From contig QPGO01000022.1 of the NCBI GenBank assembly GCA_008632985.1, positions 682,001 to 746,000 on the forward strand: DNA of 64,000 nt, read 5' to 3'. The translations under genes and the position numbers were made by a program. The notes beneath the pieces are model-generated. The model did not search any database. It was not told where the DNA came from and was given only the letters and a program-made list of their open reading frames with translations. Numbering within the stretch: position 1 is the first letter of the stretch; every line of letters begins with the position of its first letter. Positions 11,479-49,680 of the stretch are shown in pieces. This DNA is from Psammoneis japonica. Its lineage: Eukaryota.

Positions 11479-11816
11479 CTTCGTTGCTCTCTGAGTTCCC
11501 ATCTATCTACGGTACCTGGGGTGAAATCTGTGATCTATTTACCGTATCAATCATCATTCTGTGATCTGTTACTGTATGTTGTTGACACTGGCCGTCTTGC
11601 TTTCCCACCTGGCTAGCTGGCTGATCTTCCCACCATCATGCGCCGCCGCAGCCACACACAAAGGGAGTTGGGAGTGTGACACAAGACGCAAGATAGATAC
11701 GAAGGCAACAACATCATAATATCTAGAGTGTAGACATAAACGACAAATCGACTGAGTTTCCGAAAGTCTCCCGCTGCATCTTTTCTCTACGACTACATAC
11801 TATCAAACAAACCAGC

Positions 11817-13398: not shown

Positions 13399-13539
13399 AC
13401 TAACGGGTCTCCAAGATGGGACTCAGTTACTCTGTGGTATGTAGTGCATGTTGAGAACTCTTGTGATTAAAAGAAAAGATGTTAAGTTTGCGACTTGTGT
13501 CTGTTCTTTCAGATTTGAGTAGCGAGACCTCATTAATTT

Positions 13540-14040: not shown

Positions 14041-14536
14041 TGTGCATCGTAAGCACTGCTGTTGGTTGGAGACGTATTGATGACTGATAATAAAGACAAG
14101 AGTCCTCAAATTAACACCCTTGTGTGCCAAACCCAAGACAACTTTAGGTGCACCGGCGTATGGCCCGTGGAGTATGGATACTTCTACTCTCTAGAAGTAT
14201 GTCAACTGTCGAAGGCAATGTCGTGGACGGGTGACGATGAAAGGTGATGATGATGTCGAGCTTGATTGCGTGAGGCAGGGTGGTGATGATGAGTGATGAC
14301 GTGCCGAGTGCCGATGCGACGCTTGAATGTGAGACGTGCGCCTGACGGACGAAGCGATCTTTTTCGCGCGCAAAGATTTCCAGATCCTTTGCGAGCGACG
14401 CCCGACACGAGACACAACACACAACAACCTCTCTAGCCTACTCTACTAGCTAGGGCCTAGCTAGCTACTTGCTACTCTCTCTAGAGAGGCCCTACTCACT
14501 CCTAACACGGGTCTCGGGTCTCGGGCTCGGGTGACG

Positions 14537-16022: not shown

Positions 16023-16081
16023 CGCTGTAGCTTTTGAAGCACAATCTTTTATGAAAACTCTAATCGAGATTAAACAATTTA

Positions 16082-17406
16082 CTAGCGTTGCGGACGAATG
16101 ATTAGTCCTGTATCACGATCTGGCTCGGAGAAAAGGTCGCGGAATGACTTGTACGTTTCAACTGTGCCAAACACAATACCAAACAAAATAAGTGCAATAT
16201 CCAGTATCAACTCCCACACTCGGAGCTCCTTTCTCTCGAATACAGAGAGATGAAAGTAGCACGGTATGATGAAGCCCAACAGCGTACAAATTGAGGATCC
16301 CACCAATCCCAAGAATTTTCCAAAGTCTGGGACAGCGTAGCTAATGAACGCTGTCACCAACACGACAAAGGCTCGAAAGAATCTGCCATACCTCTTTGCG
16401 CTATTTCGCAAAAACATATTTTCCATGACTTCGTTCACGGGAAAGAGCATAATGGGGTACGTCAGATACAAAGCCAGACATAGCGCCAGCTTCACGAAAG
16501 TTGCCCATTCGCCAGTCAAGTTGAGTGTCACTGGAGCTTGCGTTTCATCTCCGTAGGCGATGCAGCCGCAGCTTCCAAAGACAGCCATAAGGACGGTTAT
16601 TCCGAATATGACTTTTTTCAATAAAGCTGGAAACCACTTTCGGTCTTCGCAAGATGATTCTAGGGGCAAAATCAATCCCACGCCTTCAAGGGAATAGATA
16701 GAGATGGCCAACACATAGGGAAGGTTTGAAATGTTTGCCGTAGACACAGGTTTGTGCTGAAAGTTGTTGAAGTCTTGCACAAGGACCGCGCTCAGTCCAG
16801 TTAGATTGGCAAGATCTGCGACGAGAGAGAATGGAGATAGTGTCTTCATGTCTCGTGCTTGAACGAGCAGCGCAAGAATAGGCACGCATCCAAAGCATAC
16901 CACTCCCCGATCTATCTGAGCAATGCTGTTGAAATTGGCTGCGATAAAAATTATGTAAGCGGTCGCAAAGCCAACTTGACTGACGACGAGACAAATGTCG
17001 ACCACCTTTTCTCCCACAGGTCCACAATAACTCTCCCCAAGTCCCCATAGCCGTGAATACCCTCGTGTCCTTCCGCCTCGAGTTTCTTCCTCGTTTTCAC
17101 AAGCAGCAGCATGGAATAAACATTTGCCGCAGACACTGCTGCCAACGCCAGAGAACCCAAAAGCCAACCAGAGCGCGAGAATGCGTAAGGCATACCTAAC
17201 ATACCGGCGCCAACGAAGCTGATAAAAATGTTGACAGCCACTTGTTTCTTCGTTGCTGTCCCCGGTCGTTTCATAGCGCCGTGTACAGCGCCTTGCGTGC
17301 TTGGGAATGACTTTCTGTGACCAATGTCTTCATCGTCGAAACTATCATCCAGTGCCAAGGGTCGGAGTTCAAATCCATCATCGCTTTGCTTGTCAAAGTC
17401 ATCCAT
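16082..17406 (-). CDS. Amino acid transporter (Aa_trans / SLC36-like), one apparent frameshift
   Basis: NIFISFVGAGMLGMPYAF..SGW, YGDLG, SQVGFATAYIIF, YSLEGVGLILPLE and multiple TM segments; break at ~17022 (gtggacct versus expected gtgggacct). Confidence 0.9.
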
Positions 17407-17699
17407 TTCTTCCAGCTGCGTTGTTACGTACTGTAGATCTTGGGTTGTGATTGGCGACACTCTCAGCTCTCAGACCACAGACAACTAAGCCCTTCATTGA
17501 GAGGCTGTTTGCTGCTTGCGACGCAGTAATACGGTAGCACCGGTACTTGAGACCATGCGTGCATCCCGCGTCTGTGCTCGATCGCGAGAGCTCGCTTCTT
17601 TTTCGCGGTGTGCGTGAGCATCTGATCACCTTCCTCGCTCTGTCATTCTTTTGGAGAACGACAACAGCAAGTTCGAAAGTCGGGCTTAATCATTAAATT

Positions 17700-18900
17700 T
17701 CGGTCAGTGCAAACACCCAGGAGCACTGCAACCCAGTCAAGGAAATGTCAGCATGCAATGGGGAAACATTTTGCCACCACACCCACACCAGAGTGTGCAC
17801 CTGGTGAGACCACAAGTGCGCTGCCCAAAGAGAGAGCTTTTTCTGCACAAGCTCGGGGACTTCTGCCAGTGGTGCCACCACAAGCATGCTCTGCTTCAGC
17901 AGCACAGCAACACGTGGCAGTGCCAGAGCCTCCAGCATGGCACACCTGGGCCCTGGGCCTGACATGCCTCAATTGCGGCCTCCCAAGTGCTCTGGACAAT
18001 GTGTGCCAGCCGCTGTGCCACCACGAAACTCAACCCTCAATCCCCGCCAGTGGGGGGAGGTCACCCCAAGAGGTCACATGGGATTTTGCCCTGGCATTGA
18101 AGAGTGGTCAGTCCAGGCAGTGCAGTCCTCAGATGCTGCATGAACTCACCGCTGCTGGCTGCTGCACGGCCAAAGCTCAACGTTCTTGAAGGCAGCCATT
18201 GTTGAGCACCTGTGCAGGCCAGCAACCCAGGGCATGCACAAGGTCACACAGAAGAGTCTCAACCCACCCAGCTGCTGAGCATGCCAGGGAGGGGGCTGCT
18301 GCACAGCCATGGGGTGGGAGTGCCTGTGGTTTGGTAGAGAGATCAGAGATCTGGCGCACACTCAGCAGTGCCACACTGCTGAGAGTCTCTGACAGAGATC
18401 ACATGGACCTTGCACCTGCTGGCACTTGCATGTTGGGTGATGTGGCAATGTCAGCCTTTGTCATTGCAGCAGAACCCAAGGATGTGCTGGCACACGCCTG
18501 CATGTTGCCACCCAAGTGGCTGTTTTGCTGTGGAGATTTGTGCGCTCAACCCTGTGTTGGTGCCCTTTGTGGCTGTGTTGATGCTCTGATCTTAACCTTC
18601 TTGATTGCTCCCACGCACAACAGCTCAGTTCTTGCCATGAAATCAAATTGCTTTTTAAGACATCTTCTTGGACACTCATGACATGACCGTCTTCTTCAGA
18701 TCATCTGGCACCAGTTTCTTCATGACAACAGCAATGCTTGATGATTTCACTGTGATCGTTGCGTGTGTTTGTTTGTCCAAGCCTCGTTCGCATGTCGCAT
18801 GTTTCCTCTCTATGGAGCTTGCATGTCAAAGCACGGTGAAAAGGTTCTTGCTGTGGCCTTGGTTTCTGGAGGACTTCCTTGAACCAAGCTTGGTTTAAGA
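17700..18900. repeat. Degraded repeat island, TpA- and CpG-depleted, family not identified
   Basis: Abrupt compositional switch to TG/CA-rich sequence with very few TA; many overlapping Cys/His-rich spurious ORFs. Boundaries approximate. Confidence 0.6.
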
Positions 18901-19078
18901 CGTTCATTTTCACCGACAGCATCACATAGAAATTACGAAACCAATGCGATGGAGAAAGTGGAGGATGCAGTAAATGTAGCAAATGCAATTTTAAAAGTTT
19001 AACACTTGATGTGTAACACCGAATAGTTTGGCAGCACTTCACACCGTAGCCCCAGTCCCAAGAAGCAACATTATCTCT

Positions 19079-19906
19079 TTAGGCTGCCAGCGGCTGCCTA
19101 CTTCTTCGTTGTAGTGAAAACATTGACTTCAAGGATATTATGACGGTGAGATCTTCTTGCTTTCCTTCCCCATCGTTTTCCTTCTTGTCGATGGGGTCTT
19201 CTTCCGTTCCCTTCTTTCTTGTGTGCCTTGAGTGGACGACGTCGTCGATCATAACCATGATTTGGTCCAACTCGGAACTTTCGGGCTCTTTCGTTTCTCC
19301 TCCTATTTGACTGTTAGGTAGGAGTTGCTTCTTCCGAAGTGAAGCGTACGCTTCTTTCTGTTCACGTAGTTGCTTAATGTGCTTGTCTTTGAGCTTCCTT
19401 CTTTCTTCCTCCGCCGCACATATATCGTTCAATAACGAAATTTCCTTTACACACCGATCCTGTGATTCGCTTGACATTTGCTTCTTGAATGATTCGACGA
19501 GACGCCTCTTGTATTTCTTCACATGCGACAAATTGGTTCTAAGCATGTCCATATGGTGCAAGGAGCGGCATAGCTGTGCCTCCAGGGACAGTGCATAGGA
19601 CGGGATCACGTCACTTTTCCTTGCTTGCTTCATGCTTTCTGCGTAAACATGGATTGGTGTGCCAGTCGGTCCATTCTTCTGCCAGCATTCAACAACTCGC
19701 TGAAGGCTGTCTAAATGCTCTTCGGCTTTATGCCTCTCAAGCTCCTGACGAATACAAGTCTTTTCATTATCTGATCTTAGAAGATCCAGCTCGGATTGAG
19801 CTTCTCGGATTTGTTCTTCGATCTTTGCCATCTCCTGGCAGTCCTTGGAATCTGCAACGCCCATGTGATGAGATTCAAGAGAAACTCGGGTTTGCGTAAT
19901 GTTCAT
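19079..19906 (-). CDS. Hypothetical coiled-coil protein
   Basis: 275-aa ORF with heptad-like E/K/Q/L-rich composition and host-like dinucleotide content; no family recognised. Confidence 0.6.
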   Translation of the reverse strand: MNITQTRVSLESHHMGVADSKDCQEMAKIEEQIREAQSELDLLRSDNEKTCIRQELERHKAEEHLDSLQRVVECWQKNGPTGTPIHVYAESMKQARKSDVIPSYALSLEAQLCRSLHHMDMLRTNLSHVKKYKRRLVESFKKQMSSESQDRCVKEISLLNDICAAEEERRKLKDKHIKQLREQKEAYASLRKKQLLPNSQIGGETKEPESSELDQIMVMIDDVVHSRHTRKKGTEEDPIDKKENDGEGKQEDLTVIISLKSMFSLQRRSRQPLAA

Positions 19907-20481
19907 CTACCTTGTAGTTTTTCTTTCCGTGTCTTTTGGAACAGCCTCACTGTATCATGCAAAGATGCTTTCAACTTCGTTTATCGTGTTCGACCCCCTC
20001 TACGAGACGGAGTCTTTCGAACCAGCAGTAGTTCGAGTGACCCCCGCCACTGAGTGACGCCAACAGAAAAACAAAAGGCATTTCGTGTGCAAATCGTGTG
20101 CATAAATTCGAAATTTTTGAGGCATAAATAACAACCTGAGAGAATGACAGAAGTCATTATGTTTATTTTTAAGCCCTCTATTATGTCTTTATGAACATCT
20201 GAAGTTTATATTTTCAATGACTTTCTTAACATCGCCGTTATGACCAATTGAGATTTATGCCGAATTGGTCATGCTATTTATAGCTTTATTTATCGACGTA
20301 GATATATTTGAAATAGTTTCGCACAAGCTCACATTTTGCTTCTTTTTTTGATTCTGCGAGTTTTTCAAACCTGGATTTAAGGTAACGTGCCGCTTTACAG
20401 TGTTGCATAACATGATAAAATTTGCTTTATGTGTACCATATTTTCTCTACACACAATCTATCATCGCGGTTGACAGAATTA

Positions 20482-22977: not shown

Positions 22978-23601
22978 TGTAGGGCTACGTAAGCTTAGAC
23001 AGTGGATTGGAAATTACTCGAGTCTCGCACGGATTTTCATTGTTGGATTCGACAGCTTCTATCTCGGTGTTTTATTACCGTACCCAGTGCGACGAAGGGC
23101 AAGCAGAATTTTTGTGTGGGCCTACTGAGAGTGAAGAGCGCAGAACGCTGCGGCAGTGGATGACAGACTTTCTTTTGACACCTGCTGTCCATCCCCTGCA
23201 GAGTGGGGTAAATAAGGTTACGCGCTCCGTGTGGAGCATTCCGTTCCCAAGAAGGATTTTTCGTAGCACAGCAGTTGCGAATTGGTTCCTCCTCTTTTAG
23301 GTGGAACTCTCTAGATCGAAGTCTGAAACCGAACGATTTTGGATTGCCGCCCTCGCTACTGTCAGAAAATAGAGCCATGACGATTGCCTGCACCAATCAT
23401 TTTGCTGCATTTTGCGCCGGGCGTTCGAACCAATTGTGAGATGTGACGGTTGTTTCGGTGCGCACTTTTGCGCGACCCACGTGACATGACCAACATGCGT
23501 TATGCAGTGCGTGGTGCTGGTTGTTTTGCTTCTGACCGTTCTGTCTTCTGTGGGGTTTCACGAGTTCATCTGTGCACATTGCTGTTGTCTAATTTGAGGT
23601 G

Positions 23602-23790
23602 CGGTGGCTTGAGCGAAAGTGCAATTGTGCGAAATTTACGCATTGACATGGTTGTCTTTGCTGAACAGTTGGTTGCAACTTGCGCCCATTCCAACATTTT
23701 TCCACGGTGGCTTAACTGAAAGTCTGAGTGCACGAAATTTACGCATTGATGCGGTTGTCTTTGCCAAACAGTTGGTTGCAACTCTCGCCC
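23602..23790 (+). repeat. Imperfect ~103-bp tandem duplication near the left end of the element
   Basis: cggtggctt...gaaatttacgcattga...gttgtctttg...aacagttggttgcaact occurs at ~23602 and ~23705. Confidence 0.75.
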
Positions 23791-23796
23791 TTTCCA

Positions 23797-24273
23797 TCAT
23801 TTCTGTCCGTGTTTGTTCCGTAGGATCCTTGCTTGCTCCTTCTCCTGCTCTGTTGCTCCCGATTCTTCCAGCTCCTTCTCGGTGAAAAACCTCCCACCAG
23901 TCGGTGGTGGTGCTGCCGCCCATGCTGCCTTTGGCTCCTCCATGGTTGAACCATCCCTGGGTGCGACCGTTGTTTCCACATGATGACTGTCCGCTGTTGT
24001 GTTGTCTTGCACAAGTGCAGAAGTGACATCAAAATTTCCCAAAGCAAGGTCAAACGCCGCTCTTGCTTCTTCCAAGGCAATCTCCTCTTCGTCTTCCTTG
24101 TTCATCAATGACTGAAGAAGTTCCGCACGTGTCTGCACCTTTTTCTTGTCCTCACCAGTTTTCTTTGGCTCGTCTGCCTTCTTTGTTTGTTGTTGCAAAT
24201 CCATGTTTTCTCCATTGCTGCATTTTCTGTGACGGTTGCGTTCGCGTTTCTTGGTTTGTTGGTTAAAATCCAT
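23797..24273 (-). CDS. Small charged hypothetical ORF inside the element
   Basis: 158-aa E/K/Q-rich ORF with ATG start; may be non-functional. Confidence 0.35.
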   Translation of the reverse strand: MDFNQQTKKRERNRHRKCSNGENMDLQQQTKKADEPKKTGEDKKKVQTRAELLQSLMNKEDEEEIALEEARAAFDLALGNFDVTSALVQDNTTADSHHVETTVAPRDGSTMEEPKAAWAAAPPPTGGRFFTEKELEESGATEQEKEQARILRNKHGQK

Positions 24274-24346
24274 TCGACGTTGTGTGACGTACGTGTGGAT
24301 TGCTGCGCATTGTGCTGATCTAATCGAAACATTTTATTTTACGAAA

Positions 24347-27300
24347 TTACCGCATTTTTACGGTTGGGGTCGCCAAATGGTTGTGCAGTGGTTGACATCC
24401 CAATCTAATGTTTGCACACTGCATTGACATTTCTGCGCACTGTTGCTGAGAAAAATGCGTGGCGCTTCTCTCCTTCATGAGTCTTGTCAAGGCTTCGCAG
24501 CCTTCTGGGACCTTGCATTTCCGGAGGTCCTTGCTCAGTGGCTTTCGCATGAACAGCCCTTCTCTGGTCTTTACTCTGGAGAGCACAACATGCACCCAAT
24601 TCTGAGTGTAGCTCCAAGAGTGTACAAACAACTGCGGGACTCCACTCCCTTGCAGTTTGTGCCCTGCAGTGGCGTTGTTGATGACAAACGGCAGCTGGGT
24701 TGCCTTCAGTTGGAAAGTGTGCCTTTGTTTGTCGCCTTCTTCTAAAATTAGGCTGGGCTTGGCAATGCAAGCCCTGAAAGCATTTGTTTTTGGCTCAACT
24801 AAAAACTTCGCGGGGTCGATGCTTTTGTTGCAGTGTTCCAATGCAACGTGGTCTACCTGGCTAGCAAGTGCAGCAGGAATGCTGATGTTGTTGTCTAGAG
24901 TTGCCAGTCTTGGTTCCTGTCCTGGTTTGAGAACGACCTTGTCAACAGTGGCTTGCGTTCCGTTTGCTTGACCGTTTGCTGCATTTTTGTTGAAAGGTGT
25001 CATGACTCTGCATCCTCTGTAAATTCGTAAGACTGGATCCATTCTTCCTGACTGCATGACAACGTCTCCTTCACCACAGTTGTTCCAGAAGCTGTTGTGA
25101 ACCGGAAATGGTTGGTAGAGTCTCGTGCCATTCTGCACCTGCAAGTCGTCACTGAAAATCAACATTGAGTCAAGCACGTCTCCATCTCTTCCATGCAGTG
25201 TTTCTGCTCTTTTTTTGAATGGGCCAGTGTCAATTGCATCTCTGTCCTCATTTGCGCACGCAGCACAGCGGAGGTCACTGGGCAGATCATCTTCGTTCTG
25301 AACTGCTCGTTCGTTGATGCACTCTGTGTCGTCAACTGCAATCTTGCCAGTGCGGAATCTCTCAAGCAGTTTTCCCCATGATGGATCGTCTTTAAGCCTG
25401 TGTACACCATGAAGTTCTATGTGGCAGTTGATCCACTCGTGAAACTCGGGACACACATCTTTGTGCAGTGGTTTCACTCCTTTTCTGACTGGTTCTAGTT
25501 GCCTGAGGTCAGCTGCAAAAACAATGTTCACACCACCGCACGGCTTGCTTAATTCGCCCTTCAATGCCGTTAAATTCTCATGGAGTTTTTCTAGTTCTCT
25601 CTTGCTTGCAAAAGAAATCTCGTCTACCACCAAAAGTCTCGTGTCTGACCATGCTTCAATTTGCTCTTTGGTCATTTGCTTTCTTCTCATGAGGCATGCA
25701 ACTCGGTGGATTGTGTCCCCTTTGAGAACAGTCGCAGCCACTCCGGTCAGTGCAGTTGTTCTGATTGTGCTTGTTGTGAACGGCTGCTCAATGAGCGAGC
25801 AGCACTCTCTTCCACATTCCACGACGAGGTCCATTGTGGTTGATTTGCCACTTCCACCTGCACCATGTAAAAAACACACAAGTTGCAATGTTCTGCGTCT
25901 TTGCACTTCCACGAGTTTCTTCAATCGGCGAAGGTTTGTTGCGAATTCGTGTCTGCCATTTCTCCTGTTGAGTCCATTGCGTGACGTCTCGTCTTGAAGA
26001 GCGTCTTGGCAGCAAGTGAGCACAAAGGTTCCTGCTAGAATTTCAAAGGCACGCTGCTGTTGCCTGTCCAGTCTTGCTTTCCTAGCCCAGTCTACGATGC
26101 TTGCTGCAGATCCGTTTGCTTGACGCACATCGACGTGTTCTTCCAAACCTGTCACATCCTCAAACGACCTTCTTGTTCTTTGCGTTCTAGTCAGCATCAC
26201 TCGAACAATGTCGTCTCTTGACAGTGGTCTGCTGTGGATGTGTTGTTGCACTCCTTCATTCTGGTCTTCGTCATCGGTGTCATCGCCGCCCTCTAGATTC
26301 TCAAAAAGTTGTCGTTCATTGACCTGGCTTTCCTCGTTTGGTGGGTCAGTGTGCATGTCTGCCAAGCATTTGCAACCACCCATGTGCAAACCTTTCTGTC
26401 TTGCACGTTTGCCGCTCAAATGCGCAGGAACAACTGCTTGGTCGCTCAACCCAATGTCATCGTCTTCTGTCTGCTCTGCCATTTCTTCCAAGAGTGCATC
26501 CAGCAGTTGACCTTGAACGGCGCCTGAAAGACCTTCTTCCTCGTCACTTTCGCAACAGTCAAACGCAACGTCAGCAGGTTTAAATTGCTCCGTCTTTCTT
26601 TGCAGATCGTCAGATGTACTTTTGAGACGAAGGCAGTTGGACTTAGCATCCTGCAGGTTCTGCAAGAAGTTCAAATCTTCCTCTGCAACAACACCGGCTG
26701 CTGCGGAGAGTTGGAATTCACGCAGACATGCATGGGTCATTGGTTTGAGTTCCGTCATTGTTCTGCAAGGCTCAAACAAGGCCAATGCCAACTTGCAGCA
26801 CAATTCTTTGTCTGGTGTTGTCGGTTGCTGCGGATCCATGAGGCAACTGCCAAACTTGGCTGCATCGGGAAAATCATGCTGAAGTGCTTTTGACAATCGC
26901 GGTTGCTGTCGCTGTTTGACACCTTGAAGAAACTTGTTCTTCGTTGAATTGCAAGATGGGTGCCTGTGCGCTCTGTTGTCGAACATCATCATGCCGTGTT
27001 CATTTTTCCTTGTGTTGCGAAGAACTTCGCACTCACTGAAAAACGCAAACGGACTGAGATTCTCCAGTGCTGTTGGACGACATGGGCAGTGCAAGGCCTG
27101 GCATTGGAAGAACGGTGTGTCGCCAAAATGGGCTACAGTCGCAGACACTTCGTCTCTTTCCAGTGTGCTGACAATGTCTTTCAAAGGGCACCATGCGGTC
27201 AAATGAGATTCGATGAAACGGCTTCCGTTCCTTGTTGTGTAAGACGCAAGTGGTGGTCCAATGACGTTCGTCTTGTCATGCGAGCAAGCACCCCACATGA

Positions 27301-30065
27301 GACGTCTGATTGCTTCCGATGCATCAGATGTGTGTTTCCGTAATTCCGTCGCTGTCCTGTTCGTAGTGTGAAGCACTTCGTCGTACGATGCAGTGTCATC
27401 TTTCTGGGTGTCTTTTAGGATGTGCTTGATCGTGCATTGAGCAGACGGTCCAGGCATCAATGAAGCAATGTTTGTGTTGCATGTCAGTTTTGATCTGCTT
27501 GTTGCAGGGCACGACACGTTTTGAAAAGCATCGCACTTTCTCCTCTTCGGAACAACTTCCTTCACGTGCCAATGCGCAAAAGTTCCATCCCAGCTGAACC
27601 ACTTCATCTGAGTGTCATCTGCATTCCTTGCCAAATTGTTTGGACACGAAGCAGCTGGTTGCCTGTGACGGCAGTCACCTGTCTGAGCTCCTCTCGTTTC
27701 CTTTTCCTTGACTGCGTGTCCAGTTCCTCGTGTGGGGTTTTTTTACGCATTTTACGCAACTCTGCGCATTTGGGAAAACACGACTTCGTAATGTGCATGT
27801 GATGGTTGTAAGCTGCGTCCAGCATGCATGCCTCTGTTGTCCCTTGCGGACCACTTCGCTGGCATTGCACACACATTGCTTTTAGTCGCTTTGCATGGTT
27901 GTCTGGACAGTGAGTCAGGCCAGGCACACGGTGCCGTGACTGTAAAAAGCTTTCTACAAACTCGACATTTGTCCAGTGCTTGGCGCAGTGACGACAATGA
28001 GCAAACATTCCGTTCTTCGACTGCTGGCCGTCTCCATGCCTCAGGTTTCTTGGCTGTTGGTTGTCCACTGCTTTTGGAGAGGTGCGACCATTTTTGGTGC
28101 TGTGCAGTCATGATCGAATGCTTCACGCAACGCGTTAGTGCTGAAGTCCTCGCTGCAGATTAATTCCGTGCTGCAGATCTTCTGAACTGTGTTGGCAAGG
28201 TGCTCAGCACCTTCGCATCGGATTTGTCTTGTTGGCGAATGCAGTTTCTCTCTTGCATTGTTGATGATGCGAACCAGATCTGCATGTGTCCGTGCACTGT
28301 CAGACGTCCCTGCTCCTCAACTGCGGCTAAAAATGTGGCTGGCCTGTCAATGTAGAAGTTAAAGTTTTCTCTTGGTTGGTTGGCACTCAGATCCCAACCC
28401 ACTGCCTCTTCCATTGCAATGTCAAACAAGCACTCGAATACAAAGGCTGTTAGACCGGGAAACTTTAGACGCAGTTCATTACGTTGCTCAGCCCTGCCAG
28501 CAAGAATTTCATCCGTCAGTTGTGTCACGTCTTCGTTTGGGTCCAGGATGACACCCGAGTGCAGTTGTGCAAGAAACGAATTTGCATCGTCCGGACTGAC
28601 GGTTAAGAAAATGCCACCCTGACCAAAATGATGCTGACAAGTTTCGGCCTTTCTCCTCATTTTCTTTGCTGCTTCGTTGCTGTGTGGCAGAGACGCAGAT
28701 GCAACGTCGAGTGCACGCAAAAAGTGGTGCCCGAGTCCACAATTTCTTCTCTCGCCCAAGTTGCGATCACAAACAGCTCCATCCACATCGTCCACTGTCA
28801 GTTCGTTTGCAAACTGTGCAGCCTGATTCTTGTCCCTGACTTTCCACCCTGCGCTCTGCAGCATCCTTTGCTTCATTGTCAAGTTGTGGCATGTTAAAAC
28901 GAAGAGCTGCTCGTGGAAGTGAGGCTGGGAAATCCGTGCTGAGTGGTCGGCACAGTGTGCAAGGTTGGTGCCATCTGCAAGACTTCCGTCTTTCTTCATT
29001 CTCGTCTCATTGATTCCTCCTCTGCCAAAAGGAAACTGCAGCAGACACGCGCCAATGAAGTTGTTGCCTTTGAAATCACTCGCAGATTCTTTAGACAACT
29101 GTGCTTGCACCTCTAAATCAAATCCGTTGGCAGTGGCTTCATGCACAAGATCTTTGAAGCAGTCCAGGTTGCGCTGACCACCGGTCGCAGGAGACATGGT
29201 TCCATCAGGAAAGCAAATGTGAAATGACTCTGAGGTCTCAATGTTGCATTTTCTCCTTCTTCTTCGCTGGTGCTGTCGCCAAGTGCGGGATTCCGCAGAT
29301 TGCGCCCAACTTCGTCTAGATTTGTCTGTTGGCACACCCACTCTTGGTCATGGCACAACAGCCATTCCATCGCCCTCAGCATGCAGTGCGTCCAATTCTG
29401 TTCTTTGAACGCGCAAGTTGTCTTTGCTCCGGAGTCATCTTTCCAGTCATCAGTGCAATCACATTCTGATGTAAATTCAGTGCGTCGAAGTGCACAACAG
29501 TTCTTACGATGCTTTGCATCTTGACTTTGTAGCGTGTCAGACTTCCCTGAAGCTTCTTCTGTTTGCCGCCAAGGCAACTGAAGCAGCATCCGCATGTTTT
29601 CACTGGTGTGAGCATTGCCAATTCTGCTTTGGTTAGAGACAACAGTTCATGCGGCGGGGTGCCGAAACAGCAGTTGTTCGCCATCGCGTACATTGGCATG
29701 ACGGCTCTTCCCAGGCTTCTCCGGCATTCGCTGCAGCAAGTGAATCCGTCGGCGCGTCGTCTGTCTTCCTGTGCTGCGTGTTGGGCGCGGGGAGAAAGCA
29801 GCAGGTCTTTGATCCAATCAGCATCTTCATGCTCTACAGTGCAGCAGGACTTGAGACGATCAGATGCGCTGTTCCAGTCTGAAGGAGTGAGTGAGTTTCT
29901 TGCTGATTCCAATGTTTTGAGCGGCAAGTGACACACTTCTCCAGGTTTCAGCAGAACGTCACAGACTGAACATGCGTGTGGTCTAAATTCTCCATCTCCA
30001 TGTAGACAAAGCATCTCAAACTTTCCATTGATTGCGTTGCAAACACAGGAGTTGACCTCGTCCAT
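24347..30065 (-). pseudogene. Helitron Rep-helicase (DUF6570-like region + HUH Rep + PIF1 helicase), frameshifted and hypermutated
   Basis: C..C...MPMYAMANN..FG.PP.EL..LT.AE; QFPFGRGG; FLTVSPDD; VEEQGRLTVHGH (HUH); QCTIKH at the YxxKY position; GAGGSGKS (Walker A), VVDEISF, FAADLRQLEPV, ATAGHKLQG, HVVLSRVKT. Confidence 0.9.
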
Positions 30066-30149
30066 TTTAATTTAAGCTGACACTTCAACTCAACAGATTT
30101 CAAGAAGTTGCTCAGCAAAAACAGTTGTTTTTTCAGTGGGATCACCGTG

Positions 30150-30790
30150 AAGCTGCGATCGGTGCCATCCAATCACCACAGCGATGTGTGTTTTGTCACC
30201 ACCTGCGGCACTGTGACTGGTGTCGTCCAGTCACCGCAGTTGTTCTGTCCAGTTGATCAACGAACCGCGTCGGTGCCACCCGTTCACCGCAGCGCTGTGT
30301 CATCTTCTCACAACCTGTGCAATCAGGTCGCTGTGAGCAGTCACCGCAGCCGAGTCAATCAGTTGCTTGACGAACTGCGTCGGTGCTGTCCGATCACTCC
30401 AGTGTTGTGTCGTGTTCTCACAACCTGTGCGATCAGGTCTCTGTGAGAGCTGCGACTGGTGTCATCCAGTCACCGCAGCTGAGCTTGTGCGTTGTCTCAC
30501 AACCTGCGTTACGAGGTGCAGTGCTGTGTTGTTTGCTCACAACCTGTGCAATCAGGTCGCTGTGAGAGCTGCGACTGGTGTCGTCCAGTCACCGCAGCCA
30601 AGTGAATCAGTTGCTTGACGAACTGCGTCGGTGCTGTCCGATCACCGCAGCGTTGTGTCGTGTTCTCACAACCTGTGCGATCAGGTCTCTGTGAGAGCTG
30701 CGACTGGTGTCGTCCAGTCACCGCAGCTGAGCTTGTGCGTCATCTCACAACCTGCGTTGCCAGGTCACTGTGAGAACTGAGAACTGCGAT
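30150..30790. repeat. Composite tandem repeat array upstream of (or within the N-terminus of) Rep-helicase
   Basis: Recurrent cacaacctgtgc(g/a)atcaggtc.ctgtgagagctgcgactggtgtcgtccagtcaccgcag and aatcagttgcttgacgaactgcgtcggtgctgtccgatca blocks. Confidence 0.85.
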
Positions 30791-30975
30791 CGGTGTGGCC
30801 CAATCACCGTAGTTGGATGCTTTTTGTTTCCCTTTGCGCAAAGGTTCTGTCACAAAAAAGTGAGACGAAAGTGTGCCTCTTTCACCTTGACGGAAGAGTG
30901 ACGTGTGCGTTCCTCCCACGTCCTTCTTCGCACCAGACGTGCGACATCCTGCTGGGTTTCGTCGATGTTGAACAT

Positions 30976-31077
30976 CCCATGGGACAAGATTTGGATCTTG
31001 TTCAAGTTGTTTCGACCATCTGCTCTGAACGTTCCATGGGGCAAGATTCGGATCTTGTTCAAGTTGTTTCGGCAATC
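30976..31077. repeat. 2 x 57-bp direct repeat (KQLEQDPNL.PW on the minus strand)
   Basis: ccatgg..caagatt.ggatcttgttcaagttgtttcg occurs twice, 57 bp apart. Confidence 0.8.
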
Positions 31078-31505
31078 TTGGTGGTGGGCGCAGCTTTGCG
31101 CAAATTCCGTAGAATCACGTTTCAACAAGTGGCGGGGCAGTTGAGTTAGTCGTGTGGGCAATGACAATGCGATTGACGTCATTCGTGTTTCCAAAGTGCG
31201 CGCAAATCCTCCAAATGGGTGATGGGCCCACCTAGCTACGCGGCAGTAAGGCTGAAATGCACACGAAGCACGGACGGAATTGCACGTGATGCCGCATTTT
31301 CAGCAAACTTGGTGCGACTTTGCGTGCTCCGATCCTAGCACCTGTTTTGTTCAAATTGAATCCATGCACCACTTGCAAGTGCTGACACCTGGAAGGTTGC
31401 CTTGTTGCAGTTCGACGTGTTTGGATCTAATTGCTGATGTTGCCAGTTCTCCTTGGTATGATGTGCGCAGCTCTGCTGGGTCTTTCTTGGCACTTCTGGA
31501 CGATC

Positions 31506-31569
31506 GCACTTTTTGTTCCCACAATTTCTCTCCGACTGCACTTTTTGTTCCCACAATTTCTCTCCGACT
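31506..31569 (+). repeat. Perfect 2 x 32-bp tandem repeat just before a cargo ATG
   Basis: gcactttttgttcccacaatttctctccgact twice. Confidence 0.9.
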
Positions 31570-31575
31570 GATTCG

Positions 31576-32447
31576 ATGGCACGCAAAAGAAACACAACGA
31601 CCTCCCCGGCTGCGAAAGCCAAAGTCGCCGAAACCAAACATAAGAAGGCAAAGACGAAGTTTTCTGATGCTCTGTTGAAGAAACTAAGTCCGCCCCGCAA
31701 GACCAACGGCTTGACCGACGACGACCTTAAACCGGAAGACCACCTTGCCAAGCACGGGTTCAAGCTTTCCAAATCCGCTGGTTCTGACGATGGCAGCCAT
31801 TCCGATGAGGACGCCCTGCTGCGCTGCGCCACCGTCACTGTCGGCCGCAAGAAAGGCGTCGTTTTTCGTCTTCAAGCCAAGAATCCCCTTTCAACCAATG
31901 TTTGGTCGGAGAAGGTTCTGTTTGATGACCTTCGCAGCAGGACTCCGTGGGCGGTTCAAGTCGGATTCCACCCTTACGCTGGCAGGTGGGTTCACGAAGG
32001 CGAGTTGCAGACGAACGCCAAGAACTGCGCCGTGCGTCTCTTCTTCATCTTCCTCGAAGAAGTCCCAACGAAGCTAAAGTGCACGGCCTCGGGAAGTGCA
32101 TTGCGAAGCAGCTCAACGATGACCCTGAGAACAACACCGAGGTCTTCGTTGACGACGACTTCTTCTGGATGAAGGATGCTGTTTGGTCCGAAGTGATCAG
32201 CAACGAGGCGGCGATTGCCGAGCTTCAGAAGGAAGGTGGTCAGTTTCACATCGGTTGGTGTGCCCAAAACAAGAACTTGCTTCACAGTTGCTTCTACGAG
32301 GGGTCGTTGCCTGTGGAACTCTGTCGTCTCATTGGAGCTCCGGCAGAAGAAGCTGGAGAAGAGGCCGACGATGATGTCGAGCTCAACTGCGAAGTTGACC
32401 TGAACGTCGATGACGACTTGGTGCTTCAGGACAGCGACGAAGACTGA
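31576..32447 (+). CDS. Element-borne unknown protein (basic N-terminus, acidic C-terminus), one frameshift
   Basis: MARKRN... in ORF 31513..32172 continues into ORF 31947..32447 if one C is added at gaagtcccaac (~32066); strongly codon-like third-position C/G. Confidence 0.6.
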
Positions 32448-32668
32448 GTTTTTTTTTTTTTGCCGGTGTTGTGTAAATTTGCACATGTTTGGAGAACTAA
32501 GTGTCGATTACAACTCAGCTTTCCTCTGTCTCTTCAAGTGTGCACCATCTCCGACGATAACTTTACGTTACCGCGAAGCGATGGCGAATTGAGTGGAGTA
32601 ACTAGCGTGTCACGTCTAGTGCAGTGACAGTAAAAAAACAGTCCAGTTGAGTTCTCAAGTAAAATTGG

Positions 32669-33520
32669 TTATTTCGCGACGGGCAAACACTTCCGTTCCA
32701 AGTGTGTCGGAGTGGGACGTCGCATGTGCTGGCTGGTTGACTGAGAAGTCTCCTCTTTCTTGGTGTGCTTGTGGAAGACGAGATGTTTCACGTCTCCGCT
32801 GTGCCACAAAAAGTCGCCATCATGGTAATCCGCCGTGAACGACTCGTACATCCACTCTTCCGCGTACGACGCGAACAGCGGATCTAGCGCCACCATCACG
32901 GTCCCAGCACGACACAACTTCGAAAGCATCGCCTCTGCCTTCTGCTGTGTGTTCTTGTCGTCGACCATGCGGGAGTTGCAGTTGTTGAAGAACACCTTGA
33001 GCCCTTTCTTTTTCCACAAAGGAGCCAGCCCCTTGTCCAAGAATGACTTGTTGATCAACTCTAACCCACCGTTCGAGCGAAGGCCAGCACGATGAGCCCA
33101 ACGTGCAGCCTCTTGGTGACGATCGTGGTCGGCCTCGATGCTCACCACGGTGCAACGGCGACGAAGTAACTTGAGCCCGATGCTGGGTCCGGCAACTCCC
33201 CCGCCCATGTCGACAGATGTGTCGCAGGTGTGATTCACGCCAAGAAGGCGTTCGTTCAAAAACACTTCGCTGCTCAAAGCGAAGCCAACTTCGCCGCCGT
33301 GCGAAGATCCGCTTCCGTCTCCGGAGACACGCCTGCTCTGGAACGCGGAGTCCGGAGCCGTTTGATGACAAAACTCCCCAACACTTCTGTGACGATGGTT
33401 CATCGTATCCAACCTTGTGGCAACATCAACCTTGCTTGCAGCGGGTTCGACCAGACGTCGCGTTTCCAAACCAAACTGTGACGTGCGCAGAATGCGTAAA
33501 ATTGCCGTCGCGCCCTCCAT
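32669..33520 (-). CDS. DOT1-like class I SAM-dependent methyltransferase (element cargo)
   Basis: Ordered motifs HGGE (cf. YGE), VDMGGGVA (motif I), VSIEAD, KSFLD (cf. GDFL), VFFNN (cf. IFVNN), AGTVMVALDPL, then W and FHKH (cf. YY). Confidence 0.6.
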   Translation of the reverse strand: MEGATAILRILRTSQFGLETRRLVEPAASKVDVATRLDTMNHRHRSVGEFCHQTAPDSAFQSRRVSGDGSGSSHGGEVGFALSSEVFLNERLLGVNHTCDTSVDMGGGVAGPSIGLKLLRRRCTVVSIEADHDRHQEAARWAHRAGLRSNGGLELINKSFLDKGLAPLWKKKGLKVFFNNCNSRMVDDKNTQQKAEAMLSKLCRAGTVMVALDPLFASYAEEWMYESFTADYHDGDFLWHSGDVKHLVFHKHTKKEETSQSTSQHMRRPTPTHLERKCLPVAK

Positions 33521-33837
33521 GCACGCGAAATTTTCAAACGCGGCGTGCCACCTCTACCTGCGCATGGAGCGACGCATGAAGTCATTTTAAACAGACATGT
33601 AGACGCGTTGAAATAATAAGACGCCTTCAGGCGGTAAAATTTGTTTTGAATCTCGACCTGCTTCTCATCGCTGCCGTACTTGCATGTCCGTGTAATTCAA
33701 ACGCACGAGCTGGCACGGCACGTGACGCACTTCTACGCGAGAACTCGCACTGAGATTGCCGTGGGATGATCCTCCCTCTGCGGAGACAACAACAACGCGA
33801 CAACACTTCCGTCATCACATTTTGAACACATTTCAAA

Positions 33838-35283
33838 TTGAGACACACCATGTCGCAACTACCTCGTGCCTCGCTGCGTCATCCTGCCAACGACAAGCAC
33901 TTGTCGCGATCGAGTTACAGCCGGTCTCGACAGTGTGGGGGTTTGGGACGTGCAGCTCGCAGCCCGACAACAAGCAAGTGCTTCTCGCGATTAGGTTTCG
34001 ACCCCACTCCCCTGGAGTCCGCCGGTCCCTGTCAACAGAGTTTTGCTTTGGGTGCTCTTGAGGCACCGGAAAGCAGACACATCTCTCGATTAGGTTTTGA
34101 CCCCACTCCCCTGGAGTCCGCCGGTCCCTGTCGACAGAGTTCTGCTTTGGGCACTGTTGAGACGACGGTGACAGTGTCAAGCAGCGGAACGTTTGCCGGT
34201 GAGTTCGCACACACGTTCTCTGTGAACACCGCATTGTCAATGCGCACCAGGATGTGCGAGCACGTGTCAAGGGCTCAACCGCCACTTCGCAAGGCCCACC
34301 GCAGCCGCAGGCGAATCCGCAGCCGCGCCAGCAGGAAAACATCCAAGATTGCTCGCCTCGTTCCACTCGCACCGTGCGCCACTGAGAGTCTCTCCATGCA
34401 CTGCGTGGCCAACCGCACTCCAGTTTGTGACGGCGACTACACTCAGCCTGCACCACCTTGTCTTGCTGACTTTGACTTTGCCGGATTGGCTCCTCTGGTC
34501 GTCTGTGACCCTGTGCTCGATCTGAAGCCTTTCTTTGGCTTGGACGGTTGCCGCTGCGACAACACCTGCACCCTGCTGCCACGTTCTGCTGTGGTGTTCA
34601 GCTCCCCCAACCCAGCAGAACTAGTTGCTCAGCACCGAGCGCTCGAAGCACTAGAATGCTGCACCGCCCAGTCCACCGTGCGCGGCAAACAACGTGTTGC
34701 CTTCATGGAGACTGACAGGAGCAAGCATTCCACGATTGGCCTGGCTGCCACGAGAGACGCTCGAATTTCTTGCAAGCAGCCTGGCACAGCCGACCAACAC
34801 ACTCACCACCTCACCAGACTTCTTTCACGCATGGAGCACCTTGTCAATGAGTGCGTGGACTGTGCCATCCTCAAGGGTGTCGCTTGTGTCAAAAAGTTTC
34901 ACAACTGGAAATCCCTGGTGCGGTCAGATGGCATTTTCTCCTCTCTGGCGGCTGGGCGCAATGTCTTCCTCAACGCCCATCGGGACGAGGACTTCTTCCT
35001 GTCAGTGGTCACCGTGGTGGGAGTCCCTCCGTCCGGCAGCCACACCATGAATGACGGGATTGTGGTGTGCTTCTGCTTCCCTGCCAAAGGCATCTCTGTT
35101 GCACTCCGTCTTGGTGATGTCATCATTTTTAACCCCACCAAGCACCACTGCATCTCCAGCAGGACAAACTCAAACGACGAGTTCTTCTGCGTGTCTCTCC
35201 ACCTGAAGAGTGCTGCAGTGGGCAAGAACAACAATTCAATCCCCCTTTCTCTAGAGGAAGAGACCATTCTCAGGCGACTGTGA
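33838..35283 (+). CDS. 2OG-Fe(II) dioxygenase, TET/JBP-like (element cargo)
   Basis: NAHRDED (HxD), FCFP..GI.VALRLGDVIIFNP.KHH (distal His), VSLHLK (cf. SLxY); in-frame 99-bp duplication at 33989/34088 in the N-terminal part. Confidence 0.65.
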   Translation: MRHTMSQLPRASLRHPANDKHLSRSSYSRSRQCGGLGRAARSPTTSKCFSRLGFDPTPLESAGPCQQSFALGALEAPESRHISRLGFDPTPLESAGPCRQSSALGTVETTVTVSSSGTFAGEFAHTFSVNTALSMRTRMCEHVSRAQPPLRKAHRSRRRIRSRASRKTSKIARLVPLAPCATESLSMHCVANRTPVCDGDYTQPAPPCLADFDFAGLAPLVVCDPVLDLKPFFGLDGCRCDNTCTLLPRSAVVFSSPNPAELVAQHRALEALECCTAQSTVRGKQRVAFMETDRSKHSTIGLAATRDARISCKQPGTADQHTHHLTRLLSRMEHLVNECVDCAILKGVACVKKFHNWKSLVRSDGIFSSLAAGRNVFLNAHRDEDFFLSVVTVVGVPPSGSHTMNDGIVVCFCFPAKGISVALRLGDVIIFNPTKHHCISSRTNSNDEFFCVSLHLKSAAVGKNNNSIPLSLEEETILRRL

Positions 35284-35488
35284 CAGTGCAAAATAACTTG
35301 CTAAATTTGTGTAAATTTGCTGACTTTCTGCACTCAGGCGACTGTGCAGGTGCCTGCTAATTTGCCAGATGTGCGCAAATTTACCGACTTTCTGTTCTTC
35401 CTCGTCCCCATTTTTCAAACCACAACTGGGGCTACGCCTTTCCAACTGATGCTGCAGTTTCGCTGAAAAACACCAACACACTGTGCCA

Positions 35489-36973
35489 CTAATTTACAGA
35501 GCAAACTACACGGCAGACATTTTGCCAGACGCAGAGCTTCTCCTCCCTGACTTGGGGAGTGGGCGCGATTTCTTCTTCCGATTCATGGCACCCGACGTCG
35601 CCTTCCTCTTCTTCTTCTTCTTCTCCATTTGTCCAAATTGCATTTGCAGAGAAATTCCTCCCCGGGCATGATTTGCTTCGTGACTGCCAAGCACCCGTCA
35701 TTGTAGAACTCGCAGTTGTTGTCCGCGTGTTGGCTTGCCTTGATCTTCTTCTTGTCCTTGAACAACTCGGTGGCATCGTTCACGTGGTGCATTCCGAGGC
35801 AGAGTGGATGGGAATTCTTGTTCCCTGGACCACTAAAATCAAGCGGTTTTGGCTCCACTGTGACGCAGCAGCCCTCGCTGTCACGGATGGTGGAGCAGCA
35901 CACGCTGTGGTCTTCTCCAAACTTGCTGTCGTGGTCGTACCACGAGTGGCTCCTCGTCGTTCCGGGCACCCTGGGGCCCACGTAGATTCCAACCGCACTG
36001 CCTTTCTGGAACTGGCGCAAAGCAAAAAAACCAACACCTGCGCCCCTCCGTTGCGATGCGTGCAGCTCGCCCACCTCCACCTCCTTGGGGCCTGCGGAGC
36101 GAACGGACTTTTCAAGGCAAAACAACGCAGGTTGGATGACACGGCGCCTCATCCAAATGTGCACACTTCTGCACTTACTCTCTTCACAAGGTGGACCAGT
36201 GCGAGCAACCACCCCGCTTCGAAAGCCTCGACGGCGGTCTTGAACACTTCGTTGCTCTTCGGCGTGAGTCTGGGATGCCCCTCTCGCCGACTTCCATGCG
36301 GTGCCTCCACACCCACTTGCAGTGTTCGCCGTGAGCATTCGCGACGGCTTCAGGGTCGCTCCTGATGCACCCCAGTTCTCCCAGCGCGGGGCACCAGAGG
36401 TCGGGATTGTTCGGCGCATCCTTCATCAGGCACATGGACTCCTGGAAATTGTCGGATTTTTCGTGCCGCAACACCCAGTCCCACAAGTCGAATGACGGTT
36501 CGGTGGGGTCCGGAAATTGATTTCCTTCTTCTTCCTCTTCCGCCGTTGCTTTCGCGACCCCTTTGGCGCGGGCTTGGCTGCCTCCTCGCTTTTGCCGCTG
36601 CAAAAAGACAGGACCTCCGGTTTCACAAAGGTGGCCTGATCACCCACCAACTCGATCTTGCACCGGCCTCAAGCAGCTGCTCGGCGGTGTGACCCAGCTG
36701 CTGTGCTTCATTCCAACCACAAATTTGAAAGGTTGGCTCCGGCGGCTCGGCTTTCTCCCTCTTTTCAGTTTGGGACTGCGCCGGCTTCTCCGACATCCTT
36801 GCGCGTTCGGACTCGACGGACACACCCTCGGCACTTCCCTCGGCACTTCCCTTGGCACCGAGTGCAGTCATGGCAACTGCCGCCGCGCCTTCGGTGCCCG
36901 TGAGTTCTGCCGCGGCTTCTGGAGCTGTCACATCCTCTGCTTTGCCAGATGCAACGATGTTGTCCTCCGCCAT
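35489..36973 (-). pseudogene. SET-domain protein (element cargo), frameshifted, terminal Tyr read as Cys
   Basis: GAGVGFFALRQF.KG..VGIYVG, PLCLGMHHVND, IMPGEEFLCKCN; N-terminal pieces in ORFs 36623..37213, 36426..36650 and 36184..36603. Confidence 0.72.
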
Positions 36974-37637
36974 TCTGACGCCGTGATGACAGAGGTGCAC
37001 TGACTGCTGTGTGTGGTGTGCTGTGTTCCAGCCGTTGGCGATCCACATCCTTCTGCGCGCGTAAACGCACGACACTTCGTACCGAATTCGACGTGCCTGA
37101 CGCACCCTACACTGCCTGCCGCGTGCTTCCGACTTCCTCAACGTCCCGCCTCCACCACTTTCAACTTGTCCTCGGGACGTGGCGCGTCTGCACCTGTCTA
37201 CGTCTGTCTGCACTACGGCACTACAGCGCCCTGCATCAAAACTTCATTAATGTTTGTTTTTTGCTTTCTTTTCCTTTTCTCTTCTTCTTCCATCTGGCTG
37301 GGAGGAACTGCTGGATAGCCTGGGTATTTTATGAAATGCTGTAGAAATCTGTTTGTCACACTAGTTTGCGTACTTTAGGCTCTAGAGAGTAGCTCTAGCC
37401 TTAGGTCATGCCGCGACTCTCCAATTCGTGCATTCCCGATCTTGCTCCGTGGGAATATCGTACGCTCCATCCCCGTCGTTTGGCATCTTCAATTGCGCAA
37501 AGAATCTTTGACACGTCCAATCCAACCGACACCCATGACCAACTCGGACCAACAATAAGATGGCTGCGTCCAGTCTGCAGCAAACACCGGAATATCTATC
37601 TTCACGAGAAGATGATGGGTGCACCGGTGCCCCATAA

Positions 37638-42226: not shown

Positions 42227-42639
42227 ATATAACGACGTGAGTTAGCATTGCATGTTGCAGCAACTACTGCATTTTTCGACGATTGGGGATTAGATGCTTC
42301 CGGTTTCGTTTCCAGCCATCAGCGTATCACACCGAAGTACCCTGCGTCGGTTTCTTTTTTAAGGAAAGTCGACGGTGATTGTTAGTGAAACGGTATGTGC
42401 CACACTGCAAACGACAACTAGAGCCGCTCCGACGAAATGACTCAATTGTGTCTTATCGAGAATTTTCAATTCTTGCTTGCCATCTGCAAGTTCGCCTGCA
42501 TAGACTGTTTCCGTCGTTTTCCTTTGTCGTCTGTCGTTAAAGCTTTTACAACGTAAGGGACAAGGCTGGCAAAGGCAAACCTTACCTTTGGTTGATCTTT
42601 CTTTCCATCATTTTTTCTCTTGGTCATTTGAAAGGTTGT

Positions 42640-49593: not shown

Positions 49594-49680
49594 GAAGTTG
49601 TGGTTGCAGAGACATGGAAAGGTCGACGCATAATCAAATTTTAAAATGACAGTTGGATTTGCGGCAGAAAACCAAGCAAA

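Follow-up and report, generated by a model that had tools for sequence, protein, structure and literature searches.

How can a transposase gene lose both of its catalytic tyrosines and still present an open reading frame of more than a thousand codons? The question is raised by a Helitron copy in the Psammoneis japonica assembly GCA_008632985.1, found in a window of 64,000 nucleotides (nt) of contig QPGO01000022.1 (positions 682,001 to 746,000, forward strand); the window is the whole stretch that was analysed, and the coordinates below are counted from its first letter. The coding part of the copy lies at 24.3-30.1 kb on the minus strand, in a repeat that begins at ~23.31 kb, and encodes a Rep nuclease fused to a helicase (Rep/Hel). 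In the reading proposed here, to which a probability of about 0.85 is given, this Helitron was struck by local hypermutation of TpA to TpG or CpA, which erased tyrosine (Tyr) throughout the protein, including the catalytic pair, and left Rep dead. The features of the copy that bear on this reading are as follows.

29376..30071, minus strand: DUF6570 N-terminal region of Rep/Hel (PF20209, E 6e-7, 30.4 bits, cut-off 24.3)
28160..29347, minus strand: Helitron_like_N, the N-terminal part of the Rep nuclease, in a frame of its own (PF14214, E 1.2e-9, 39.1 bits, cut-off 28.9)
28286..28294, minus strand: intact histidine-hydrophobic-histidine (HUH) motif, H-G-H in EEQGRLTVHGHMQIW, which aligns with the invariant H598/H600 of alignment A1
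24347..27742, minus strand: open frame of 1131 codons that encodes the nuclease C-terminal part, in which the dead Tyr motif lies, and a PIF1-type helicase
within 24347-27742, minus strand: PIF1-type helicase (PF05970, E 1.1e-13, 51.7 bits, cut-off 25.9)
25841-25864, minus strand: Walker A motif GAGGSGKS, intact
27422..27436, minus strand: former catalytic Y-x-x-x-Y, now C-T-I-K-H (TGC ACG ATC AAG CAC)
27677..29393, minus strand: span of five 1-nt deletions, near 29393, 29245, 28265, 28088 and 27677, where sister contigs carry one base more at each

Full-length relatives of this protein have ~1870-1960 residues and the same three domains, the best of them being 46% identical to the window copy. 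The hallmarks of a Helitron found here are a Rep domain with HUH, a fused C-terminal PIF1-like superfamily 1 helicase and genomic repetition, together with a Helraiser-like HUH-nuclease fold that was found for the homologue P0019. The two catalytic tyrosines expected after the HUH are missing from the window copy, which has C and H instead. The copy is a descendant of the Helitron family but not a functional member of it.

The initial annotation had described positions 27422..27436 as the Rep catalytic YxxxY downstream of the HUH with both tyrosines converted, each through one A>G on opposite strands, and it was accurate in all of these points. The minus strand reads caa TGC acg atc aag CAC atc cta aaa, in which TGC (27436-27434) and CAC (27424-27422) encode the Cys and His at residues 103 and 107 of the stop-free frame 24347..27742 (context PGPSAQCTIKHILKDTQKDD), ~280 residues past the intact HGH. 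Each codon is a single transition away from TAC: an A>G on the minus strand at 27435, and at 27424 a minus-strand T>C that is an A>G on the plus strand. Both changes stand in a 5'-TAC-3' context on the strand bearing the A. When the protein is aligned with its relatives, the motif falls in the Y-x-x-x-Y-x-x-K column of the Helitron family. Both motif columns hold Tyr in all 19 homologues of the first search (MAFFT alignment); after the addition of nine shorter relatives, 27 of 28 sequences span the motif, with Tyr in 27/27 at the first column and 26/27 at the second; and in the set from an exhaustive search, where 105 of 171 span it, Tyr is present in 101/105 and 100/105, respectively. The Lys three residues after the second Tyr column is found in 105/105 homologues and is retained in the window copy at 27413-27415. 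Only 2/105 homologues lack both tyrosines, and each of these is itself a Tyr-erased protein. The nearest homologue, P0020, reads QYTIKYILKDT vs QCTIKHILKDT in the window, with 69% identity across 90 residues.

The assignment of this motif to the catalytic site is also supported by structure. A family-profile search of the PDB matched the Helraiser transposase via its helicase only, with PIF1 structures as the top sequence matches. The homologue P0019, and not the window copy, was therefore modelled with AlphaFold2 (AF2) from a 15-sequence alignment (predicted local distance difference test score, pLDDT, 65). In this model the Tyr pair Y489/Y493 sits on a helix, and the best match in the PDB is the Helraiser transposase 7lcc_A (Foldseek E 8.2e-3, prob 1.00; VIA-align Z 10.6, root-mean-square deviation 4.1 over 259 aligned residues, model 1-602 on chain 420-862), followed by viral HUH Rep nucleases at Z 5-7. 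Helraiser has its HUH at H593/H595 and its tyrosines at Y727/Y731, and each mutant is without transposition in cells (Grabundzija et al. 2016, PMC4778049). The two systems share the HUH fold, two tyrosines four residues apart on a helix and a PIF1-like helicase that follows; they differ in that the spacing from HUH to Tyr is 134 residues in Helraiser vs ~280 plus a Cys/His-rich insert in the clade of the window copy. The longer spacing is seen both in P0001 (~600-877) and in the window (~27440-28290), and the stretch between HUH and Tyr in alignment A1 contains the invariant residues C663, C700, C703, H765, H767, C772 and C798, making this Cys/His-rich stretch a probable zinc-binding insert in the nuclease. 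The identification of CTIKH as the former catalytic YxxxY is supported, the residue-level equivalence of the Tyr pair resting on the fold match and the motif rather than on a superposed active site, and we infer that nuclease activity would have been lost.

The erasure is not confined to the active site. Conserved columns, taken as those with agreement among at least 80% of twelve full-length relatives, number 476, and the window copy retains 384 of them (81%). Tyr columns are retained in only 3 of 24 cases vs 381 of 452 for the other conserved columns (Fisher p = 1.7e-13), while the conserved Trp (10/10), His (16/16) and Cys (18/19) show almost no loss. In a leave-one-out control, the twelve relatives retain between 17/27 and 24/27 of their conserved Tyr. 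The 21 lost tyrosines are now Cys in 14 cases (TGC 11, TGT 3), His in three (CAC), Phe in three and Thr in one, such that 17 of the 21 correspond to TAY>TGY (14) or TAY>CAY (3), where the final Y stands for T or C. Other residues show replacements of the same type: five Val became Ala through GTA>GCA, two Leu became Pro with the codon CCA, and Ile or Val gave way to Thr, read from ACA. The composition of the conceptual protein is shifted to match: Tyr makes up 0.47% vs 2.93-4.14% in relatives, Cys 4.52% vs 2.05-3.10% and His 4.21% vs 1.91-3.27%, with Ala also raised. Nine Tyr codons survive in the copy, all of them TAC. Since 21 of 24 conserved tyrosines are gone, the chance of losing both catalytic ones is ~0.76, and their loss is to be seen as an expected by-product of the general erasure and not as a targeted event.

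The same bias is evident in the DNA, where the element (24347-30071) was compared with a flank baseline (positions 1-20000 of the window).

TpA observed/expected: element 0.19, flank 0.57
CpA observed/expected: element 1.64, flank 1.16
TpG observed/expected: element 1.46, flank 1.16
CpG observed/expected: element 0.73, flank 0.92

The GC content is not shifted in the element (~0.48-0.50), and the non-coding parts of the element are as poor in TpA as the coding parts. Survival of TpA relative to the flanks depends on the neighbouring bases, being 0-6% for ATAN/NTAT, 21% for GTAC, 29% for CTAC/GTAG, 55% for CTAG, 61% for GTAA/TTAC, 68% for CTAA/TTAG and 73% for TTAA. The most enriched product is NTGC, and the order of contexts is broadly equal in the three other TpA-poor blocks of the window described below. 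Judged from these counts, the target appears to be read as 5'-T-A-N in the order TAT > TAC >> TAG > TAA, the top two being the Tyr codons. tRNA adenosine deaminases act in a similar context, U33-A34, in which the target A follows a U as it follows a T here. The apparent TAT/TAC context explains the ratio of 14 Cys to 3 His (binomial p 0.013) better than does strand bias, which was considered as its cause and rejected, the raw counts on the coding strand being CA 885 > TG 680.

A mutator aimed at TAY, hitting every Tyr codon without making stop codons, had been suggested in the initial annotation. The mutator itself is real, as the 17 TGY or CAY codons among the 21 lost tyrosines and the fall of TpA to 0.19 vs 0.57 attest, but its target is TpA generally (GTA>GCA, CTA>CCA, ATA>ACA), and the nine surviving TAC codons show that not every Tyr codon was hit. 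The point about stop codons holds in full: TpA>TpG/CpA cannot generate a stop from a sense codon, as TAA>TGA begins from a stop and TAG becomes TGG or CAG. Per 100 positions, element vs flank, TAA falls to 0.41 vs 0.79 and TAG to 0.36 vs 1.06 while TGA stands at 2.01 vs 1.78, so the total density of stops in the element is lower by only ~1/4. The 1131-codon frame owes its openness not to selection but to its coding origin and to the stop-neutral character of the prevailing mutations.

Taken as a mechanism, local hypermutation would turn TpA into TpG or CpA (A:T>G:C on either strand) in the Helitron copy. Every TAY codon contains TpA and TAT/TAC appear to be favoured, and in this way TGY (Cys) or CAY (His) would have replaced almost all TAY. 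The two-tyrosine (Y2) HUH nuclease would thereby have lost both of its nucleophiles, and Rep, by analogy with the Helraiser Y727/Y731 mutants, would be unable to nick or join DNA; the five 1-nt deletions break the frame in addition. Such transitions remove TAA and TAG and never create a stop, and the dead 1131-codon frame would stay open and look conserved. The chemistry may be adenine deamination, possibly by an ADAT2-like enzyme such as that proposed in the preprint introduced below. Judged from that preprint, the process is probably an active hypermutation and its chemistry probably adenine deamination.

Further evidence comes from sister copies of the element, taken as those contig pieces of one sample that were placed on 23.3-32 kb with at least 80% likeness (n = 2475; 696 at 99% or above, 769 at 95-99%, 767 at 90-95% and 243 below 90%). 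The summed depth, which is not a copy number, is 1782-7836 on the element vs 61 on the unique flank contig, and means that the Helitron is present in tens of copies. The pieces vary at 279 places, with a transition at 249 of them (64 A>G, 57 T>C, 56 G>A and 72 C>T). The 40 of these 279 variant rows at which every covering contig differs from the window were examined and grouped into 31 events, comprising eight adjacent TG<->CA swaps, nine CpG<->TpG/CpA changes, two places at which the window keeps TA (both GTA/TAC) and the sisters have CA/TG, and 12 others. One swap, at 27427/8, lies inside the motif itself, where sisters have ATT GAG vs ATC AAG in the window. The Lys is conserved, so the ancestor can be read as ATT AAG, with T|A across the codon boundary, changed on opposite strands in different copies. 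Opposite-strand outcomes at one TA site indicate that the copies were mutated independently, after insertion. Proteins of the sister copies were sought in public protein collections and none was found, the best identity being 54%.

The sister contigs also bear on the frame breaks. Searches by tblastn with relatives placed five frame changes, each with the same step, near 29400, 29245, 28250, 28095 and 27700; all lie in the nuclease half, and the last 3.3 kb of the coding part is without a frame change. An extra base is present at or near each frame change in ~20-60% of sister contigs by depth. Tentatively, the five deletions can be regarded as common to a sub-lineage, as if a frameshifted sub-lineage had been amplified.

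Several observations weigh against this reading or limit its reach. Conserved columns carry 92 replacements, of which TpA changes by themselves account for only 31; ordinary divergence and a number of CpG transitions (two of Arg>Trp, now TGG, and Arg>Gln, now CAA) make up the rest. The preference for TAY was measured against a host-flank baseline and not against the ancestral element, and a second Tyr-erased homologue, P0129, has 8 His to 8 Cys and hence no excess of Cys. In addition, the two catalytic changes, at 27435 and 27424, may belong to this copy alone or to a sub-lineage.

The element is not the only TpA-poor part of the window, in which the following islands were delimited.

17.7-18.8 kb: TpA 0.05-0.24, CpG 0.19-0.6
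23312..37060, no strand: TpA-depleted domain with 151 TA in 13,749 nt, sharp edges and CpG near normal
42.6-47.7 kb (42560-47700): TpA ~0.03 (0.01-0.09), CpG ~0.03-0.1 (0.00-0.17)
56.4-64 kb (56390-64000): TpA ~0.03 (0.01-0.09), CpG ~0.03-0.1 (0.00-0.17)

Their edges are sharp to ~50-100 nt. The 23.3-31.5 kb part of the second island is the Helitron body (CpA/TpG ~1.5), and the low edge of this island coincides both with the end of the unique flanking contig (23308) and with the CTAG at 23314-23311, a candidate Helitron terminus. Between the islands lie host genes of normal TpA, encoding kinases, MsrB, thioredoxin, an amino-acid transporter, a sulfatase, a major facilitator superfamily (MFS) transporter and SAICAR synthetase. 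In these host-gene flanks, TpA makes up 4.0% and CpA+TpG 13.8% of dinucleotides, with GC at ~48%. Two further features belong to the anatomy of the Helitron.

23311..23314, minus strand: CTAG, candidate Helitron 3' terminus, at the repeat edge where the unique flanking contig stops at 23308
30338..30727, no strand: tandem repeats of ~129 nt (3.1 copies, 75% matches) immediately 5' of the Rep/Hel frame

No significant 3' subterminal hairpin was found near the CTAG at 23311..23314 (z 0.67), and the Helitron 5' terminus was sought in the window and not located. Contig joints among the sister copies suggest that the copy number of the ~129-nt repeats at 30338-30727 varies.

The remaining stretch of the second island, 31500-37060, has TpA of 0.00-0.47, CpG of 0.5-1.4, CpA/TpG of only 1.0-1.5 and a GC of 0.52-0.55. 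It is contiguous with the Helitron, is repeated at least to 32000 and contains long open reading frames (ORFs), for example 33826-35280 on the plus strand (485 aa); it may represent the 5' half of the Helitron with captured sequence, or another element. The 17700-18800 island sits between the amino-acid transporter gene and other host ORFs. None of the 48 ORFs submitted from the TpA-poor blocks other than the Helitron coding part, including those of 17700-18800 and 31500-37060, matched Pfam. In the two extreme blocks (42560-47700 and 56390-64000) CpA+TpG reaches 1.8-2.0, and 43935-44596 matches 63998-63351 in inverted orientation at 68.6%. Between these two blocks is a 3.3-kb direct duplication (47924-51268 and 52835-56133) that carries the MFS transporter and SAICAR synthetase genes and has normal TpA, with 75-nt tandem repeats at 51362-51822 between its two copies. 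The duplication shows 23 differences in 3286 aligned sites, four of them TA<->CA/TG, and is not hypermutated.

A comparable process has been described recently. In mutation-accumulation lines of Bigelowiella natans, the main text of a preprint (Mettrop et al., bioRxiv 10.64898/2026.01.13.699255) reports that 231 of 302 nuclear point mutations fell in two viral inserts, that 230 of these 231 were A>G/T>C and that all 230 lay on TpA, some lines showing de novo rates of ~1e-7 to 1e-6 per site per generation. It further describes 124 clusters genome-wide that are TpA-poor and CpA+TpG-rich, an enrichment of TpA-poor coding sequences for DDE and reverse-transcriptase Pfams, and proposes an ADAT2-like adenine deaminase (bioRxiv 10.64898/2026.01.13.699255). 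Coding sequences of B. natans have 4.1% TpA and 13.7% CpA+TpG (bioRxiv 10.64898/2026.01.13.699255). GC is 45% in B. natans and 27% in the other sequenced chlorarachniophyte, and in composition the host-gene flanks of the window agree with B. natans. The cut-offs used there for clusters (Rho TpA of 0.43 or less, CpA+TpG of at least 1.52, in runs of at least three 1-kb windows) are passed by 19 of the 64 1-kb windows studied here; those at 25-27, 43-47 and 56-63 kb qualify, and those at 24, 28 and 31-36 kb pass the TpA cut-off only. The two cases are alike in their TpA>TpG/CpA transitions and in having TpA-poor, CpA+TpG-rich islands amid normal host genes, and differ in that the target in the window is a multi-copy Helitron and not a viral insert. 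We infer from this likeness that the process is probably the one measured de novo in B. natans. The mutator has thus already been described, and the Helitron is a new target of a known process, not a new kind of system. The main text of the preprint makes no mention of Helitron, tyrosine, stop codon, helicase, CpG, trinucleotide or context; what is added to that text here is the erasure of Tyr including the catalytic pair, the retention of open frames and the hierarchy of 3' neighbours, as well as edges that coincide with the end of an element and blocks with CpG loss too. As the de novo events in the preprint are almost purely A:T>G:C, the loss of CpG in the two extreme blocks is probably a process separate from the TpA mutator. 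Other literature searches for such hypermutation found only work on fungal repeat-induced point mutation (RIP) and on ADAR/APOBEC; no literature on CpG methylation in Bigelowiella was found, and there was none on Helitrons in B. natans among the matches listed.

Four other explanations of the locus have to be weighed. The one that survives best, though it is still unlikely, retains the hypermutation and changes its chemistry, either to a lesion on T (for instance a modified thymine at TpA in silenced DNA, mispairing with G) or to an A-to-I-edited RNA that was copied back. TpA is palindromic, and an A>G on one strand is indistinguishable from a T>C on the other. A thymine modification that prefers TpA occurs in other protists. 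Helitrons, however, move as DNA, which speaks against an edited RNA copy, even though a 5'-U preference is typical of ADAR editing according to the Discussion of the preprint (bioRxiv 10.64898/2026.01.13.699255). The preprint mutations, moreover, arose in a single-copy and transcriptionally silent viral insert, and an ADAT2-like candidate was found. The known deaminase systems frame this comparison: APOBEC3 and ADAR likewise produce deaminase-type, context-dependent hypermutation of parasitic nucleic acid, and ADAR shares the 5'-U/T preference, but they act, on cDNA or RNA, against elements that pass through RNA, whereas the target is a DNA transposon here and silent integrated DNA in the preprint.

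A RIP-like process triggered by duplication as such would fit the multi-copy state of the Helitron but is improbable, given that the 3.3-kb host-gene duplication in the same window is unmutated (23/3286 sites differ) and that the main target in the preprint is single-copy. The direction is also opposite. RIP, known from Neurospora and other fungi, is similarly a host process that introduces dinucleotide-context transitions into mobile DNA and leaves a dinucleotide signature; it is, however, C>T, mainly at CpA, creates TpA and many stops, lowers GC and needs duplication. The process in the window, by contrast, removes TpA, is unable to make stops, leaves GC where it was and has spared a nearby duplication.

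Selection is a shade less probable again, whether as domestication of a helicase with an inactivated nuclease or as avoidance of TA, for instance to escape a TA-reading nuclease. The helicase half is unbroken, Walker A is intact and the five frameshifts all fall in the nuclease half (chance by length ~0.01), as a domesticated helicase would have it. Yet the summed k-mer depth of ~50-90x the unique flank marks a repeat and not a single host gene, the loss of Tyr is equally heavy in the helicase half (13 of the 21 lost columns lie in 24350-27742), sister copies differ in outcome at identical TA sites, and the non-coding parts of the element share the poverty in TpA.

Least probable of all is the ordinary neutral decay of a dead copy, with two Tyr changes by chance and no mutator, for although the five frameshifts and the 61 of 92 conserved-column replacements that are not of TpA type agree with it, Tyr columns were lost in 21/24 cases vs 71/452 of the others (p 1.7e-13), TpA stands at 0.19 of expectation with compensating CpA/TpG, a stop-free frame of 1131 codons is unexpected under an unbiased spectrum, copies differ by TG<->CA swaps, and descent from a TpA-free family ancestor is argued against by the 2.9-4.1% Tyr of the homologues.

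Traces that resemble those of local TpA hypermutation are also found in other Helitron families. Eight of 171 relatives have less than 1.5% Tyr, and P0129, P0149, P0160, P0125, P0135, P0169 and P0088 are Helitron Rep/Hel relatives with 0-1.2%. P0129 contains no Tyr in 1355 residues, and its catalytic pair is C..C; of the conserved-Tyr columns it spans 18, now occupied by 8 His, 8 Cys, 1 Phe and 1 Ala, while 281 of 322 other conserved columns (87%) are retained. P0149 has 0.57% Tyr and H..C at the catalytic pair. These Tyr-erased relatives belong to families other than that of the window copy, with 29-35% identity to its protein, and such Tyr-free relatives in public assemblies suggest that more than one Helitron family may be a target of the mutator, perhaps in different organisms. 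A wider proposal, tentative and rather less than an even bet, is that the mutator serves for more than defence against viruses and is a general, element-delimited system for killing transposons that has an intrinsic preference for TAT/TAC and erases Tyr, with a separate CpG>TpG/CpA decay that leaves old repeats with hardly any TA or CG.

A:T>G:C hypermutation of DNA is very unusual in a eukaryote, the first report of it, on viral inserts, dating from 2026. Here the same signature is found on a classical DNA transposon, whose well-conserved protein family makes the consequences readable residue by residue. No amino acid is more exposed to the mutator than Tyr, the catalytic nucleophile of this class of transposase. 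Inactivation without stops also means that gene finders and criteria based on an 'intact ORF' would call dead copies intact or domesticated. The hierarchy of 3' neighbours and the element-bounded edges constrain any proposed enzyme and targeting mechanism, and the blocks that lack both TpA and CpG point to a second process. If a general transposon-killing system of this kind does exist, it would remove the nucleophile of HUH and tyrosine-type transposases and recombinases, and the genome would accumulate frames that are long, open and conserved in appearance but catalytically dead.

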